Assembly: GCA_003854985.1 (NCBI GenBank)
Contig: RQOG01000153.1
Coordinates: 1-17,626 of the forward strand
Reading direction: 5' to 3'
DNA: 17,626 nt
Source of the DNA: Calditrichota bacterium
GTDB taxonomy: Bacteria; Calditrichota; Calditrichia; Calditrichales; Calditrichaceae
A model generated the notes under the pieces. It searched no databases. It had not been told where the DNA came from and saw nothing but the letters and a program-made list of their open reading frames with translations. Both the position numbers and the translations under genes were made by a program. Below, in pieces: positions 5,283 to 10,523 of the stretch; the stretch's first letter is position 1; every line of letters starts with the position of its first letter.

Positions 5283-5540
5283 ATGAATAAAAAATTAACT
5301 TTATTACTTGATGAAACAATAATCAGCCAGGCCAAGGAATACGCAAGAAAACAAAATGAAACGCTTTCCGGAATGGTTGAAAAATATTTTTCCTATATAA
5401 CAACAAAAAATCCCGGAAAAGTACATATAAGTACTTCCCGTGATATTGAAGAACTTTCGGGTATAATCAAAGTTCCGGATAATTATAATATTAAAGAAGA
5501 CTATCGTCAATATCGTTCAAATCGGATTTTAAGTGAATAA
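5283..5540 (+). CDS. Type II antitoxin, ribbon-helix-helix (CopG/VapB-like).
   Basis: The ATG at 5283 (MNKKLTLLLDETIISQAKEYARKQNETLSGMVEKYF) has a GGGGTGA SD. A beta-strand then two helices is typical of RHH. It overlaps the downstream PIN gene by 8 nt (GTGAATAA). Confidence 0.6.
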   Translation: MNKKLTLLLDETIISQAKEYARKQNETLSGMVEKYFSYITTKNPGKVHISTSRDIEELSGIIKVPDNYNIKEDYRQYRSNRILSE

Positions 5541-5964
5541 ACTTTTTATTGATTCTGATATTTTAATTGATTTACTGGCCAAAAGACCGCACTATGATGA
5601 AGCGCTGGGATTATTAGCACTTATTGCAGAGAATAAGGCTAAAGCCTATACTACGCCGCTTGTGTTCGCAAACGTAGATTATATTGTTACCAAATTCGGG
5701 AACAAACAAAAATCAAGAAAAGCAATAAGAACACTTCGAAAGAATATTTCTGTTTTAACCATGAATGAAAAGATCTTTGATGAAGCTCTTGAATCTTCTT
5801 TTTCTGATTTTGAAGATGCCTTACAATATTTCTCCGCGATGAATCAGGCCGTTGACTTCATAATTACGCGAAACAAAAAGGACTATGCTGCGGGAAAACT
5901 TAAAGTACTTACAGCAGGAGAATATCTGGATATTCACTATGCAGAGCAACGCTCAAAAGGCTAA
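5533..5964 (+). CDS. PIN-domain toxin (VapC-like ribonuclease).
   Basis: GTG start. The N-terminal LFIDSDILIDLL carries the first catalytic Asp, and further acidic residues fall in FSDFEDALQYFSAM and DFIITRNKKDY. The 143-aa size and position after a small RHH gene fit a toxin. Confidence 0.75.
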   Translation: MNKLFIDSDILIDLLAKRPHYDEALGLLALIAENKAKAYTTPLVFANVDYIVTKFGNKQKSRKAIRTLRKNISVLTMNEKIFDEALESSFSDFEDALQYFSAMNQAVDFIITRNKKDYAAGKLKVLTAGEYLDIHYAEQRSKG

Positions 5965-6341
5965 ATGCTTCAGGTTAAAACCGGAAGATTTTTTATTATG
6001 GTTCAATATAGATTAAATTATGGAAAAAAATCGTTAACCGGCATACGCCTTTCCGTTTGGCCGATCAGAACATCGCCGAGTGGGAAACCCGTCTTCCGGG
6101 TGGTCTGCCTGTTTCGCCTGTCCAGGCGGCTTTATGCCTGCGTGAAATTTCCCGTACAGCCATGTTTATCAAAGGATTGGCTGGTGCTATCCGGAAAGAA
6201 ATGAGTAAAGTCCGCAAGCGCCTGTCTGCGTTTTATATGCGGGCTGCGGCCTTTATGCCTTGCTGCCCTGGCCGCTTCCAGCGTAACCACTTTTGTTTCG
6301 GGCAAATGATTCAAAATATAACAATGGCTTTCGATAGTTGA
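5965..6341. other. GC-rich non-coding island with internal imperfect direct repeats. It is a candidate structured RNA or gene remnant.
   Basis: GC content here is clearly higher than the flanking AT-rich DNA. It lies between the convergent PIN and feoB ends. Only short overlapping ORFs on both strands are present, none with a start context. CGCCTGTCy occurs at 6115 and 6219, and GCGGCyTTTATGCCTkGC at 6125 and 6247. Confidence 0.3.
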
Positions 6342-6468
6342 GTGTTAATAGTAATCGTTATCGAGAGCGGTTAAAAGTTAAAAAAAATTTTTGCTGATTG
6401 ACATTCGATACTCGGTTATACATTTTATCATGCCGAGTGCTCTGTCGACGCCTTTTTGATTCAGTCTT

Positions 6469-7851
6469 TTAAAACGAACGCACAATCTGAGCCACCAGAA
6501 AAGTGACCATAAAAGCAATAACCAGGGGCATCAGTGCTCCGATGGTGGTCCATTTGGCGCTTTTGGTTTCTTTCCAGATGGTTAAAATAGTTGTGGAACA
6601 AGGATTATGCAGTAAGGAAAACAGCATCAGATTGACAGCGGTGAGCAATGTCCAGCCGGCTTGATCGACTAATAATGATTTTAATTGCACCAGATCGCTT
6701 ATCTCAATCATCATGCCCGAATTGGTATAGCTCATGAGTATGGTGGGGACTACAATTTCATTGGCCGGAATGGCTATAATATAGGCCAGTAATATAGTGC
6801 CATCCATGCCAAGAAGATGCCCGAATGGCTGCAGGAACCGGGCAATCCACAAACTCAGGGATATGCCATCGATTGAAATATTAGCCAGCAGCCAGATGAT
6901 TCTGCCGGCTGGTGCCGCCATAATGATCGCTCGCCACAGGACAAATATGGTGCGGTCAATCAGTGATGTATAAAGAATGCGCATAATGTTTGGCTTGCGG
7001 TAAGGCGGCAGTTCCAGGGTAAAACTGCTGGCTTCCCCTTTTAAAATTGTTTTCGAAAGCGCCCAGGAAACCACGAAGGTAAAAATCACACCGAATAATA
7101 CAATACCGACCACCGATCCTGCGGCGATTATGGATGAAACTGCCGGGGGGAATGCGGCGGACACAAATACAATGGAAAGCATAATCAACGTGGGAAAACG
7201 TCCGTTGCAGGGAACGAAATTATTGGTTAAAATGGCGATCAGTCTTTCCCGCGGTGATTCGATAATCCGCGTGGCAATGACGCCGGCGGCATTACAGCCG
7301 AAGCCCATACTCATGGTCAGTGCCTGCTTGCCATGCGCGCCGGCCTTTTTAAATAACCAATCCAGATTAAAGGCTACCCGCGGCAGGTATCCGAAATCTT
7401 CCAGGATGGTAAAAATAGGGAAGAAGATGGCCATGGGCTGCAGCATCACCGCCACGACCCAGGCTAAACCGCGATATACGCCGTGTACAAAAAATCCGGT
7501 AAACCACCATGGTATATTCAGCCAATCCAAAACGGCCGCCATTTGATCTTCCAGCCAGAACAAAAAACCGGCGATCATCTGCGAAGGATAATTAGCCCCG
7601 ACAATGGTCACCCAGAATACTCCCATTAAAAGCAAAAACATGATGGGAAGTCCCCAGATGGGAGAGGTAAGAATACGATCGATTTTTAGGTCCAAATCGT
7701 ATTTGCGCTGTGAAGAGATATTCAATACTTTTGAACTGATTGTTTCCACATCTTTATAAATATCAATTACCATTATATCGCGGAAATTATCGTCCAGTCC
7801 TGAACGTACCTTGTTTGCTTTCTGGATAAGTTTCTTACCTGCCGAATTCAT
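6469..7851 (-). CDS. feoB: Ferrous iron transporter FeoB, C-terminal permease portion (nucleoside-recognition/gate domains).
   Basis: A 460-aa polytopic membrane protein. It starts with the FeoB linker KIDRILTSPIWGLPIMFLLLMGVF and then carries the paired FeoB membrane modules. Its ATG overlaps the stop of the G-domain ORF (ATGA), and AGGGGA sits 7 nt upstream. Confidence 0.85.
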   Translation of the reverse strand: MNSAGKKLIQKANKVRSGLDDNFRDIMVIDIYKDVETISSKVLNISSQRKYDLDLKIDRILTSPIWGLPIMFLLLMGVFWVTIVGANYPSQMIAGFLFWLEDQMAAVLDWLNIPWWFTGFFVHGVYRGLAWVVAVMLQPMAIFFPIFTILEDFGYLPRVAFNLDWLFKKAGAHGKQALTMSMGFGCNAAGVIATRIIESPRERLIAILTNNFVPCNGRFPTLIMLSIVFVSAAFPPAVSSIIAAGSVVGIVLFGVIFTFVVSWALSKTILKGEASSFTLELPPYRKPNIMRILYTSLIDRTIFVLWRAIIMAAPAGRIIWLLANISIDGISLSLWIARFLQPFGHLLGMDGTILLAYIIAIPANEIVVPTILMSYTNSGMMIEISDLVQLKSLLVDQAGWTLLTAVNLMLFSLLHNPCSTTILTIWKETKSAKWTTIGALMPLVIAFMVTFLVAQIVRSF

Positions 7852-8675
7852 AATGCCGTCCCCTGATCTTTTTGAGACGGACGGTCAAATATTGATTCGC
7901 CCAGAAATACATTCCATTCACCTTTTTCTATGGCTTTTTGCACCTTGATATCCCCATCGAGTAAGCGCATGGCTACCCAGCGCGGATTGGGCATATCGGG
8001 GAAAATCGTTTTGATTTCAGGAACCAGTTCATCCAGCGATTTTTTAATTTTATCACTGACCACAATACGGTGCGGTTTGGTTTTAATAATTCCGTCAATC
8101 ACATCGATTACTGCCTGAATGAGCTGACCTAAACCCTGTCCACTTCTGGCCACGGTTGGTATGACCGGCACGCCCAGTTCTTTTGAAAGCTGCGTATGAG
8201 ATACATCGATCCCTTTACGTTTAGCCTCATCAACCAGGTTAAGAGCTATGACCACTTTATTGGTAATCTCCAGAATCTGCAGGGTAAGATTCAGATTACG
8301 TTCCAGAACAGAGGCATCCACCACTATAATCGTGCAGTCCGGTTGACCAAAAAGTAGAAAATCCCTGGCAATTTCTTCATCAACGGATGCGGATAATAGT
8401 GAATATGTACCCGGCAGATCGACCAGTTTAAAGGATCTGCCACCCCATTTGAATCCACCTTCGGCACGGGTCACGGTTTTGCCGGGCCAGTTGCCGGTAT
8501 GCTGTTTTAAACCGGTTAAACTGTTAAAAACTGTACTTTTACCTGTATTGGGATTTCCGGCAAGCGCCACTACATGATCGATTTTATCAATTTCGATACC
8601 CAACCTTTTCAAATTGAAGCTGCAGGTATCGCAGACATTACCGGGAATAAGTCTGTTCTTTTTCTTGCGTTCCAT
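7848..8675 (-). CDS. feoB: FeoB N-terminal GTPase (G domain plus part of the helical/GDI domain) as a separate ORF.
   Basis: G1 GNPNTGKST, G3 DLPGT, G4 NLVD and G5 SGQG are all present. There is a roughly 30-aa N-terminal extension containing CDTC. GGAGAT SD sits 7 nt upstream of the ATG. Confidence 0.85.
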   Translation of the reverse strand: MERKKKNRLIPGNVCDTCSFNLKRLGIEIDKIDHVVALAGNPNTGKSTVFNSLTGLKQHTGNWPGKTVTRAEGGFKWGGRSFKLVDLPGTYSLLSASVDEEIARDFLLFGQPDCTIIVVDASVLERNLNLTLQILEITNKVVIALNLVDEAKRKGIDVSHTQLSKELGVPVIPTVARSGQGLGQLIQAVIDVIDGIIKTKPHRIVVSDKIKKSLDELVPEIKTIFPDMPNPRWVAMRLLDGDIKVQKAIEKGEWNVFLGESIFDRPSQKDQGTAL

Positions 8676-8691
8676 TAAAGATCTCCATCGT

Positions 8692-8707
8692 AAGAATATT
8701 AATTCTT
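8692..8707 (-). promoter_or_regulatory. A 16-bp palindrome (AAGAAT-ATTA-ATTCTT) immediately upstream of the feoB RBS. It is a candidate operator.
   Basis: The 6-bp arms are perfect. It lies in the 74-nt gap between the FeoA-fused regulator and feoB. The 10-mer AGAATATTAA also occurs upstream of the first dtxR-like gene (minus strand, + coordinates 10538-10547). Confidence 0.3.
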
Positions 8708-8749
8708 CTTTTCCTCATTTGATGTACCTGAAATGCTTTCCTTTGCGTT

Positions 8750-9736
8750 TCAGAATTTTTCAATAAAAATATTTCCGGCCTGTTTTTTACGTAAAGCGAT
8801 TTTAGCCCCACGGATGGAATAAGCCACCGGATCACCGCCAAATGAGCTGACTATAGCTTTGGTTATTTTTGCCCCTGGTGTAATACCCAGATCCAATATT
8901 CGCCTTCTGGCCAAACCCTGTATATCCGGTGAGAGGCCGATAACAATACCTGTTTCATTGGCAGACAGGTCCAACAGGCTTTTATTTTTCCTTGTTATCC
9001 CGCCCGTATAAGCAACCACATGAATATTTAGTGCTTCAAAAGTACTCAGAATCTGTTCCTTATCTTCAAATTTTATTGTAATTTTACAATCCTGCTTATC
9101 CGTAATTTTAATAAGCTGTTGAGGACGCAATCCCAACTTAAACAGTTTTTTACTGATATTATAGGGTTCATCTTCAATGTGATGAATCAATGCCTGATCC
9201 CCGGTAGTTAATTCGGTTACTGCCCGGATCTCTGTTTTTTTAATCCTGTGATCGATCGTCGGAATGGGATCACCATGCGGATCAATGGTTGGAAATCCGA
9301 GATGGACGTTTAATGCTTCCAGTCTGTCGCCCCGCAGATCATGTTCCATGTTTTCGGCCATACGGTGTATCTGGTGTATTGGCAGGTCTGTTTCCCTCCC
9401 CAGATAGGTTTCCCATAAACGATGAGCCCGGATAATTTCAATTACAACAGGTCGTCCTTCCGCTTTAAGCTCAATCCCTGTGGAAGTCATCCGGATCAAT
9501 CCTTTATTTTCCAGTTGATCCAAAATCCGGTAAATTTTATTTACCGATAATGATAGGGCACCTTTAAGACTTTCCACTGAGGCCGGTAATCCACGTTCAT
9601 TCCTGTGAAAAATAAACTTTAAGGCATCCTCATAATAAATACGGGTAAGTTTATTGTTGTAAGTTTTATCACGTTTGTAATAATAAATACCCAGGCCTGT
9701 AATTATAATTCCAAAAATAATATAATAAATCATCAT
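8750..9736 (-). CDS. Membrane-anchored DtxR-family metalloregulator with an extra C-terminal FeoA domain (TM, HTH, metal/dimerisation domain, SH3-like/FeoA, FeoA).
   Basis: Residues 1-21 (MMIYYIIFGIIITGLGIYYYK) form a hydrophobic helix. A winged-helix region and RAHRLWETYL...HQIHRMAENMEH...FPTIDPHGDPIP follow the DtxR N-domain pattern, then two SH3-like repeats. The second repeat (LGITPGAKI...GGDPVAYSIRGAKIALRKKQAGNIFI) is a textbook FeoA. Confidence 0.75.
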   Translation of the reverse strand: MMIYYIIFGIIITGLGIYYYKRDKTYNNKLTRIYYEDALKFIFHRNERGLPASVESLKGALSLSVNKIYRILDQLENKGLIRMTSTGIELKAEGRPVVIEIIRAHRLWETYLGRETDLPIHQIHRMAENMEHDLRGDRLEALNVHLGFPTIDPHGDPIPTIDHRIKKTEIRAVTELTTGDQALIHHIEDEPYNISKKLFKLGLRPQQLIKITDKQDCKITIKFEDKEQILSTFEALNIHVVAYTGGITRKNKSLLDLSANETGIVIGLSPDIQGLARRRILDLGITPGAKITKAIVSSFGGDPVAYSIRGAKIALRKKQAGNIFIEKF

Positions 9737-9754
9737 CTACCTGTTTAATATATG

Positions 9755-10411
9755 TTATTTAATAATTACTATAATTCCTTCCGCCATTTTACCTGAAAGC
9801 GACAAAAACTGTTTTCCATTAGTCAGCAGAAAGCTCGATTTACCAGGAGATAAATCGACCAACTCCCATACCGATCCTATCTTAAACTTTCTTTCAGTGA
9901 GGTAGTTCTCCGCTTTTGTATCCAGGTTTAGTTCATCTATTGTGAACATTAATCCGGTCTTCAAAGATTTAAGAACATGTTTTTTAATTTTTATGTCCAG
10001 GCAGGGAATTGATGAACCGTGCGGATCAACTGTTGGAAAATCCAGATATTTGTCGATATGATGCATCAGTTGATCGGAGACCACATGTTCCAATCGTTCA
10101 GCCTCTTCATGTAATAACTGACCGTCAAGTTTCAATACTTTTTCCAGAAAGGATTCGATCAAACGGTGTTTGCGAACCAGCCTAAGGGCAATCTGCTTCC
10201 CGGCATCTGTAAGACAGGCTCCATCCGATTTATTGTAATCAATAAGGCTTATTTTACACAATTGTTGAAACATGGATAGCACTGTAGGTGGTTTGACCTT
10301 ATATAATTCCGAAACCCTTTTTGCTGTCGCTTTACTATTTTTATCATTGATATACCAGATTAATTTTAGATAATCTTCCTGGCTGGGTGTTAATTTTGTA
10401 AACGAATTCAT
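9755..10411 (-). CDS. DtxR/IdeR/MntR-family metal-dependent transcriptional repressor with the usual C-terminal SH3-like domain.
   Basis: SQEDYLKLIW, RKHRLIESFL, HEEAERLEH and FPTVDPHG match the DtxR family. It lies 18 nt upstream of the next gene. Confidence 0.8.
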   Translation of the reverse strand: MNSFTKLTPSQEDYLKLIWYINDKNSKATAKRVSELYKVKPPTVLSMFQQLCKISLIDYNKSDGACLTDAGKQIALRLVRKHRLIESFLEKVLKLDGQLLHEEAERLEHVVSDQLMHHIDKYLDFPTVDPHGSSIPCLDIKIKKHVLKSLKTGLMFTIDELNLDTKAENYLTERKFKIGSVWELVDLSPGKSSFLLTNGKQFLSLSGKMAEGIIVIIK

Positions 10412-10523
10412 AAAGTTAGATATACCTACTTTAAAATAAGATTGCTCTAATTTATATTGTTTTTAAGAAAATGCAATTGTTTTTTTATGACCCGGGTAAA
10501 AAAATTGTTAATTATATTTCTCC

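Follow-up and report, generated by a model that had tools for sequence, protein, structure and literature searches.

A predicted membrane-anchored DtxR-like protein with twin FeoA domains, encoded beside feoB in at least seven bacterial phyla

We analysed a 17,626-nt stretch of DNA from a Calditrichota bacterium (assembly GCA_003854985.1, contig RQOG01000153.1; hereafter the window), whose minus strand carries, directly upstream of feoB, a gene for a 328-aa protein of the DtxR/MntR family with a predicted N-terminal membrane anchor and two FeoA domains (hereafter the anchored protein). The gene and the modules of its product map as follows, with the evidence for each in brackets.

8750..9736, minus strand: gene for the 328-aa anchored DtxR-like protein with twin FeoA domains (open reading frame (ORF), Pfam, homologues, AlphaFold2 (AF2) model)
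9677..9733, minus strand: N-terminal hydrophobic helix, residues 2-20, a predicted N-out/C-in signal anchor (hydropathy, family conservation, charge, AF2)
9596..9676, minus strand: basic linker (KRDK...), residues 21-47, running unbroken into helix α1 (alignments, PDB alignments, AF2)
9461..9595, minus strand: winged helix-turn-helix (wHTH), residues 48-92, with a divergent, non-basic 'recognition' helix at residues 64-77 (fold kept, no PF01325)
9257..9460, minus strand: DtxR dimerisation/metal-binding domain and DPHGDPIP hinge, residues 93-160 (PF02742 at 67.8 bits, invariant columns)
8999..9223, minus strand: FeoA1, the native DtxR SH3-like domain, residues 172-246 (Pfam FeoA at 31 bits, invariant columns, AF2 beta-barrel)
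8753..8989, minus strand: FeoA2, a bona fide FeoA domain, residues 250-328 (Pfam, NCBIfam, PDB FeoA chains, free FeoA of locus L078)

The two C-terminal regions were scanned separately, and each returned a Pfam FeoA (PF04023) match above the cut-off of 23 bits, at residues ~182-248 (31 bits) and 253-327 (52.9 bits), while the Fe_dep_repr_C match (PF02742, residues 93-160) exceeded its own cut-off of 27. PF01325, on the other hand, did not match the N-terminal region, where generic wHTH profiles gave weak, sub-threshold matches; likewise, NCBIfam holds no model specific to the anchored protein, and its MntR/DtxR equivalog models matched far under their cut-offs. The AF2 model, computed with 120 homologues, reached a predicted local distance difference test score (pLDDT) of 92.2 and a predicted template modelling score (pTM) of 0.80, and consists of a single long helix spanning residues 2-47 (pLDDT 95-97), a winged helix, a helical dimerisation domain and two distinct beta-barrels. 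Foldseek matched the core to MntR of Mycobacterium tuberculosis (Mtb), SloR, IdeR and ScaR (target TM-scores 0.72-0.89), and the N-terminal winged helix has the DtxR fold, as revealed by its match to Mtb MntR 5zr6 (TM-score 0.84-0.89). By sequence, the best solved relatives are the Deinococcus radiodurans Mn sensor DR2539 (8pvt) and Mtb MntR (5zr4), and the nearest named relative is a Calditrichaceae protein of 52% identity labelled 'FeoA domain-containing protein'. Collectively, Pfam, AF2, Foldseek and hydropathy bear out the order of modules proposed in an earlier note on this DNA, namely transmembrane (TM) helix, wHTH, DtxR dimerisation region, native SH3-like domain and an additional canonical FeoA. 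Its reservation that residues 166-328 might form one elongated SH3 domain is answered by the two Pfam FeoA matches and the two AF2 barrels. Among the profile hits that it anticipated, Fe_dep_repr_C and two FeoA matches were recovered, and PF01325 was not.

The N-terminal 20 residues of the protein (MMIYYIIFGIIITGLGIYYY), followed by KRDK, contain a helix with Kyte–Doolittle values (KD17 2.2, KD19 1.83) above those of every other segment of the sequence (≤1.13). A true start at an internal codon, which could have stripped the protein of this hydrophobic N-terminus, finds no place here: only ATG1 and ATG2 serve as start codons within the first 50 codons, with an in-frame TAG immediately 5' of them, so that no internal start removes the helix without losing helix α1 of the DNA-binding domain as well, and the next Met is residue 82, within the winged helix. 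Among the 120 best database homologues (35-76% identity), ~110 have the hydrophobic helix, with a basic cluster and a conserved EDALK motif after it. A search of 1.84 billion 50%-identity representatives yielded 1158 proteins at E≤1e-30; the helix was scored in 148 new top matches, a diverse set, and was found in 131 of them. It is likewise encoded at 70 of the 75 genome loci with an assessable N-terminus and, overall, in ~90% of ~270 homologues. Across at least seven phyla the helix keeps its hydrophobicity (KD17 2.2-3.5 in most homologues) and not its sequence. In most family members it ends in an FWPxxG kink, as in P0072, whose AF2 model has a helix at residues 4-22, a break at 23-27 and a further helix at 28-56 that continues into α1.

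In the 50%-identity representatives, a median of 4 residues precede the helix, and the mean number of Lys plus Arg is 0.2 before it and 6.3 after it; the corresponding flanks of the window protein are MM and KRDK. These averages show none of the positive n-region that a Sec signal peptide has ahead of its hydrophobic core, and their asymmetry argues for an N-out/C-in anchor rather than the cleaved signal peptide that residues 1-21 might otherwise have represented. Hydropathy, charge distribution and conservation together indicate that the anchored protein is held in the membrane by a single-pass N-out/C-in signal anchor. DtxR/MntR proteins are usually soluble and cytoplasmic, and the conserved hydrophobic helix with positive-inside charges predicts a departure from this trait.

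A few members, at loci L007, L090, L033, L055, L062 and L086 (L numbers denote the genome loci compared), genuinely lack the N-terminal helix although their winged helix is of the divergent kind; in L086 the post-helix motif survives as a remnant, FWYRFRP. Since the TM-less clade P0023/P0025-27 nests near the window protein (41-48% identity), these cases point to secondary loss. At L061, in a long-read Ignavibacteriales metagenome-assembled genome (MAG), a frameshift at ~5700-6100 breaks the gene after the winged helix, which marks either a pseudogene or a sequencing error.

Across the 120 sequences, H105, E109, H124, E131, H132, D152, H154, H186, D189 and E190 are invariant, D37 is conserved in at least 90% and E128 is the majority residue. 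The remaining invariant columns comprise E36, the DPHGDPIP stretch (D152-P159), and E188 and P191, which flank D189-E190 and stand close to H186. Besides the FeoA2 positions, the invariant columns of the family almost exactly coincide with metal ligands and hinge. D37 lies in the E36-D37-A-L-K motif of the linker (residues 21-47), at the position equivalent to DtxR Met10 and MntR Asp8, and makes up with E128, E131 and H132 a primary site of the Mn type (Asp/Glu/Glu/His); the FeoA1 motif H186-I-E188-D189-E190-P is the source of the ancillary-site ligands. D37, E128 and the ten invariant residues named above align to ligands of DtxR, IdeR and PgMntR. The last of these (PG1044; Zhang et al. 2016, PMC4805248) is a soluble 310-aa protein of Porphyromonas gingivalis whose residues 13-65 form the DNA-binding domain; its gene accompanies that of the Mn importer FeoB2, and the protein binds its own promoter as well as Mn and Fe, with nM-pM affinities for 3 Mn or 2 Fe in each monomer (PMC4805248). 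One-for-one equivalents exist for 12 of the 12 predicted PgMntR ligands, the numbering being shifted by 20 throughout the stretch from H85 to E170. This invariant Mn/Fe ligand set suggests that metal-sensing capacity has been retained. The earlier designation as an iron sensor stands in so far as sensor ligands are present, but it is too specific, because the set is of the Mn/Fe type and the characterised relative controls a Mn-importing FeoB.

The C-terminal FeoA2 domain is basic (mean charge +5), with invariant R277, R279, D282, G284 and R316 and the motifs RRRxLDLGxxPG and GDPxAYxxRGxxIALR. Its region is matched by the NCBIfam model 'ferrous iron transporter A', and the PDB FeoA chains 2k4y, 2k5l, 3e19, 2h3j and 2gcx align to residues 256-327. 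FeoA is encountered here as the C-terminal domain of a 328-aa protein and not as a free-standing polypeptide of ~75 aa, an unfused state that we observed only at L078 (Actinomycetospora chlora JCM 17979, 5920-7900), where a canonical soluble DtxR with one SH3 domain ends in a stop codon and is accompanied by a free FeoA and a split CxxC-type FeoB. The free FeoA of L078 (RRRLMDLGLLPG...GDPVAYEVRG...LRRQQA) matches FeoA2, and on this sequence evidence FeoA2 is orthologous to it; the unfused arrangement looks like the ancestral state of the fusion. As already remarked for this locus, no stand-alone FeoA ORF occurs in the 17.6-kb window, nor within ±6 kb at the loci compared. The suggestion that the protein might be a FeoA surrogate has gained support from the orthology to the L078 protein, the PDB FeoA alignments and the constant presence of FeoB as the next gene (77/77 loci, see below).

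The FeoB partner of the window is encoded as two polypeptides, one with the G domain and a helical part, the other being the permease.

7848..8675, minus strand: NFeoB, the FeoB G-domain protein, 275 aa, a separate polypeptide encoded downstream of the anchored gene (FeoB_N at 205 bits, FeoB_Cyto)
8595..8633, minus strand: NFeoB residues 15-27 (CDTCSFNLKRLGI), a conserved Cys-x2-Cys ... L-x-[KR]-L-G extension at the N-terminus, before the G1 motif (alignment of partner FeoBs)
6469..7851, minus strand: FeoB membrane (permease) polypeptide, 460 aa (Gate, FeoB_C; TIGR00437 positions 218-594)

The feoB neighbour previously reported is thus present, but split into two ORFs. The anchored gene and the NFeoB gene are 74 nt apart, and the ATG of the permease gene and the stop codon of the NFeoB gene share the sequence ATGA (7848-7851). 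Recurrence of the split in 44 loci across phyla shows that it is not a frameshift; no description of a split FeoB was found in the literature searched. The C-x2-C-P-x-H...L-x-[KR]-L-G extension occurs in 66/72 partner FeoBs, and also at L078, L089 and L090. It is present whether FeoB is split or fused, and whether the protein encoded upstream is anchored, TM-less (L007, L090) or soluble and canonical (L089). No Pfam model covers it. As judged from sequence, the partner FeoBs are a recognisable clade marked by this CxxCPxH extension, which could either bind metal or be a peptide on which the SH3-like FeoA domain docks.

The minus-strand cassette of the window is ordered soluble DtxR, anchored protein, FeoB G-domain ORF and FeoB membrane ORF, and unrelated housekeeping genes flank it; the same cassette, with different flanks, surrounds homologues at 75%, 47% and ~38% identity. 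We classified 77 loci with a twin-FeoA protein in GTDB species representatives. FeoB directly follows the twin-FeoA gene in all 77, so the position noted upstream of feoB in the window holds throughout; start and stop codons often overlap between cassette genes, and flanking genes are unrelated among loci. A soluble DtxR gene lies directly upstream of the anchored gene in ~29 loci. The spread recommended for inspection in the earlier note proved wide, the architecture being a trait of a family found in at least seven phyla (Calditrichota, Ignavibacteriota, Bacteroidota, Chloroflexota, Acidobacteriota, Gemmatimonadota and Verrucomicrobiota). Ignavibacteriota carriers include a MAG assigned to Melioribacter roseus, and cultured Bacteroidota carriers include Maribacter caenipelagi CECT 8455 and M. 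polysiphoniae DSM 23514.

At loci with an anchored protein, FeoB is split in 44 and fused in 19, and the 4 clean TM-less cases are all paired with a fused FeoB. We considered the rule that the anchor exists because FeoB is split and rejected it, since L090 combines a TM-less protein with a split FeoB and 19 anchored proteins accompany a fused one; with counts not corrected for phylogeny, the pairing is at most a tendency. A further observation concerns L089 (464-1444, P0268) and L034 (5866-6930, a Phaeodactylibacter MAG), whose products share ~95% identity from the DPHGDPIP hinge to the C-terminus and whose downstream FeoB N-termini are identical. Their N-terminal 150 residues are unrelated in type: P0268 begins with a soluble canonical DtxR head and the L034 protein with a TM helix followed by a divergent head. 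This points either to an exchange of heads through recombination at the hinge or to a metagenome contig of 1.5 kb that is chimeric. P0268 is also an instance of a twin-FeoA DtxR in soluble canonical form.

The soluble DtxR and its upstream region contribute two further features.

9755..10411, minus strand: soluble canonical DtxR/MntR regulator, 218 aa, encoded upstream of the anchored gene (PF01325 and PF02742)
10434..10453, no strand assigned: inverted repeat AAATAAGA-TTGC-TCTAATTT resembling an operator, 23-42 nt before the start codon of the soluble DtxR gene (kept in L001 and L002)

We compared the two regulators in 28 genomes encoding both. Pairwise identity of the recognition helix is 0.20 among the anchored proteins versus 0.47 among the soluble ones, with a net charge of −0.4 versus +1.2, and the region from α2 to the wing has a net charge of −0.8 versus +3.5; dimerisation-domain identity is 0.54 in both. 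The soluble neighbour keeps the classical xPASVTxMLxKL recognition helix. Its upstream repeat in the window is a variant of TTTAGG-N4-CCTAAA, conserved in the 75%-identical relative L001, and resembles palindromes of the DtxR/IdeR type. Indeed, a 16-bp palindrome, TTTAG(G/C)-N4-(G/C)CTAAA or TTTAAG-N4-CTTAAA, precedes the soluble gene by 30-70 nt at 21/27 loci (L004, L005, L006, L018, L019, L028, L031, L038, L040, L042, L051, L063, L067 and others), the background rate of such palindromes being 0.062 per 280 nt. Conservation of an operator across phyla requires a conserved reading head, which is found in the helix of the soluble paralogue and not in that of the anchored protein. The soluble DtxR is likely the transcriptional regulator of the cassette. 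DNA binding by the anchored protein is, from its sequence, doubtful in this clade; the moonlighting DNA-binding domain once proposed for it has kept the DtxR fold, but its recognition helix is hypervariable and non-basic.

The position of the membrane bears on the same question. In the DR2539-DNA complex, residues just N-terminal of α1 (Ser6, Ser8 and Tyr12) contact the DNA backbone (bioRxiv 10.1101/2024.02.12.579695). In the AF2 models the TM helix continues into α1 either straight or through the short FWPxxG kink, which places the bilayer only 10-25 mostly helical residues from the DNA-contacting N-terminal end of α1. With a helix leading from α1 into the bilayer and DNA contacts located just before α1, DNA would need to be positioned right at the membrane surface. 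This geometrical argument, which draws on secondary structure and on contacts from the literature, supports a loss of DNA binding without proving it.

Other candidate signals around these genes gave little. The palindrome at 8692-8707 (6-bp arms), formerly offered as a binding site, falls under the repeat-finder threshold and is unconserved in the 75%-identical L001, and was discarded as an operator; the conserved palindrome lies instead at 10434-10453. A promoter scan returned promoter-like sites only at background level, and a terminator scan detected no minus-strand terminator between the cassette genes. A hairpin with a 9-bp stem (CTGAAATGC...GCGTTTCAG) at 8728-8753 overlaps the stop codon of the anchored gene; it has no T-run after it on the coding (minus) strand and is unconserved in L001. 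An ORF of 143 aa for a PIN-domain protein (5533-5964, plus strand) lies ~500 nt past the end of the feoB cassette.

The architecture, the conserved anchor and the linkage to FeoB are properties of the family, and from them we infer a function. FeoA contacts the G domain of FeoB and stabilises its GTP-bound state (PMC8980893), which leads us to read the anchored protein as a FeoA subunit. Our preferred interpretation, to which we give an even chance, is that it acts as a FeoA subunit which is tethered to the membrane, senses Mn/Fe and regulates FeoB, transcription being the task of the soluble paralogue. According to this model, the protein would serve as the FeoA of its Feo system, held at the membrane beside the permease. 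Its DtxR core would dimerise and bind cytosolic Mn2+ or Fe2+; metal binding would tie the FeoA1 ligands (H186/D189/E190) to the core and reposition FeoA2, and the repositioned FeoA2 would alter its engagement with the FeoB G domain. The outcome would be a fast post-translational feedback on metal import, and the soluble paralogue would mainly control transcription of the cassette, at the palindrome upstream of its gene.

Several observations weigh against this interpretation. The same operator stands upstream of the anchored gene itself in 13/44 loci without an adjacent soluble DtxR, and helix α3 is more basic (+1.6) in Gemmatimonadota and Acidobacteriota loci of that kind; anchored proteins preceded directly by the operator may still be repressors. 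The wHTH fold is intact and modelled with high pLDDT, and in the window protein this domain is roughly neutral rather than acidic. PgMntR, a soluble relative, binds DNA and depends on its FeoA2 for function, DNA binding included (PMC4805248). Finally, a free FeoA could be encoded elsewhere in these genomes, beyond the window and the ±6 kb covered at the loci.

A bolder form of the same idea, which we advance tentatively, is that the anchored DtxR-FeoA-FeoA dimer no longer reads DNA at all and gates FeoB directly, so that a transcription-factor family would have been turned into a transporter subunit. The metal-loaded sensor would withdraw FeoA2 from the G domain or present it, the degenerate winged helix would perhaps be used on the G domain as FeoC is, and the CxxCPxH extension of FeoB might act as a docking or metal-relay peptide. 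If this held true, it would amount to an allosteric, seconds-scale feedback on Mn/Fe import in at least seven phyla, and to a natural system that reveals what FeoA does.

The serious rival, less probable in our judgement and on the unlikely side, is a membrane-tethered repressor: the Mn/Fe-loaded anchored dimer would bind the cassette operator and repress feoB from the membrane, the FeoA domains being structural or metal-binding as in PgMntR. The confidently modelled winged helix speaks for it, as do the operators found upstream of anchored genes without an adjacent soluble DtxR and the more basic α3 in those clades, and PgMntR, the closest characterised relative, represses its own feoB2 operon by binding DNA. 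It is countered by the absence of a PF01325 match, by a recognition helix that is hypervariable and often acidic although the operator is conserved across phyla, by the canonical soluble DtxR encoded immediately upstream in the window and in ~29 loci, and by the few, mostly helical residues separating the bilayer from the DNA-contacting end of α1. The repressor role is compatible with the FeoA role, and may be ancestral and combined with it.

The invariant multi-site ligand set, the membrane position next to FeoB and the nM-pM affinity of PgMntR for 3 Mn or 2 Fe per monomer would also suit a metal acceptor or chaperone at the FeoB exit, a dimer that takes Mn/Fe from the permease and buffers it or passes it on without regulating the transporter. 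We consider this improbable, as it leaves unexplained the constant attachment of a bona fide FeoA domain, a partner of the G domain, and the cassette gives no evidence of downstream acceptors. To our knowledge, moreover, DtxR-type sites are sensory, and not transfer sites, in all characterised members. Least credible is an ordinary soluble DtxR regulator whose hydrophobic N-terminus stems from misannotation, is cleaved off as a signal peptide or packs as a helix on the protein, which the moderate hydrophobicity of the window helix might suggest (KD19 1.83; ~0 to −1 kcal/mol summed on the Hessa scale) but which conflicts with the lack of an alternative start codon, with hydrophobicity conserved across at least seven phyla where sequence is not, with charges placed after the helix, opposite to a Sec signal peptide, and with the cytoplasmic nature of the remaining modules (metal sensor and G-domain partner).

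The family matters for annotation and for the Feo field. Anchored DtxR proteins are common, forming at least ~130 distinct 50%-identity clusters over seven named phyla, and the family is large, widespread and uncharacterised. Its members are currently labelled 'DtxR family Mn-dependent transcriptional regulator' or 'FeoA domain-containing protein', labels that are probably misleading for regulon prediction. A sensor and a FeoA joined in one polypeptide and pinned at the membrane beside FeoB, with a G domain that is often separate from the permease, touch on the long-standing questions of how FeoA affects FeoB and how Feo is shut off when metal is replete; the family probably couples the cellular Mn/Fe level directly to the transporter. 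The parts, that is, a soluble G-domain protein, an anchored sensor-FeoA and a separate canonical repressor, make up a dissectable system, and the cultured Maribacter carriers render experiments feasible.

Among known systems, DR2539, Mtb MntR, IdeR, SloR and ScaR share with the anchored protein the core fold of wHTH, dimerisation and SH3 domains and the Mn-type Asp/Glu/Glu/His primary site. Unlike it, they have neither a membrane helix nor a second FeoA, their recognition helix is conserved and basic, and they show no obligate linkage to feoB. FeoA itself, either free or fused to FeoB as in the NFeoAB of Bacteroides fragilis (PMC8980893), resembles FeoA2 in being a canonical domain, encoded directly upstream of feoB and the only FeoA of its locus, and tethering would put FeoA2 near the G domain much as fusion to FeoB does. 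FeoA2, however, is neither free nor joined to FeoB; it shares its polypeptide with a metal sensor and a membrane anchor. With ToxR and CadC, to which the protein had been likened, it has in common a DNA-binding-type domain on a membrane-inserted protein and a possible link of transporter or envelope to regulation. Those regulators consist of a cytoplasmic N-terminal DNA-binding domain, a TM helix and a periplasmic sensor, whereas here the TM helix stands at the extreme N-terminus, the sensor is cytoplasmic and all domains lie C-terminal of the helix; with only ~1-6 residues outside the cell there is no periplasmic sensor, and the analogy fails. FeoC, a small (~80 aa) free protein with a winged helix, is a binding partner of the G domain of FeoB in gammaproteobacteria. 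It offers, as an analogy only, a winged-helix module tied to the Feo system that acts by protein-protein contact and not as a classical repressor.

The closest system is PgMntR, and by sequence the anchored protein is a member of this twin-FeoA branch of the DtxR/MntR family. Both have a DtxR dimerisation/metal domain followed by two FeoA domains, of which the second is basic, both have equivalents at all 12 predicted ligand positions, and the genes of both share an operon with that of a FeoB-type transporter without a FeoA of its own. They differ in that the DNA-binding domain of PgMntR is canonical, begins with residue 13, is detected by domain databases and attaches to promoter DNA, whereas the window protein has a ~30-residue N-terminal extension with a membrane helix, a wHTH unmatched by PF01325, and the company of a separate soluble DtxR and a split FeoB. 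In the literature searched, which did not extend to subscription journals, we found no membrane-anchored DtxR, and the only DtxR-FeoA fusions were PgMntR and those that a survey of FeoA fusions, in a note on its methods, explicitly left out (PMC8980893). The architecture, of which the earlier note was aware of no characterisation, is thus known in one part, a twin-FeoA DtxR beside a FeoB gene. New are the membrane anchor conserved at the N-terminus, the degeneration of the reading head, the presence of a soluble paralogue alongside, and the systematic pairing with a FeoB that has the CxxCPxH extension and is often split.

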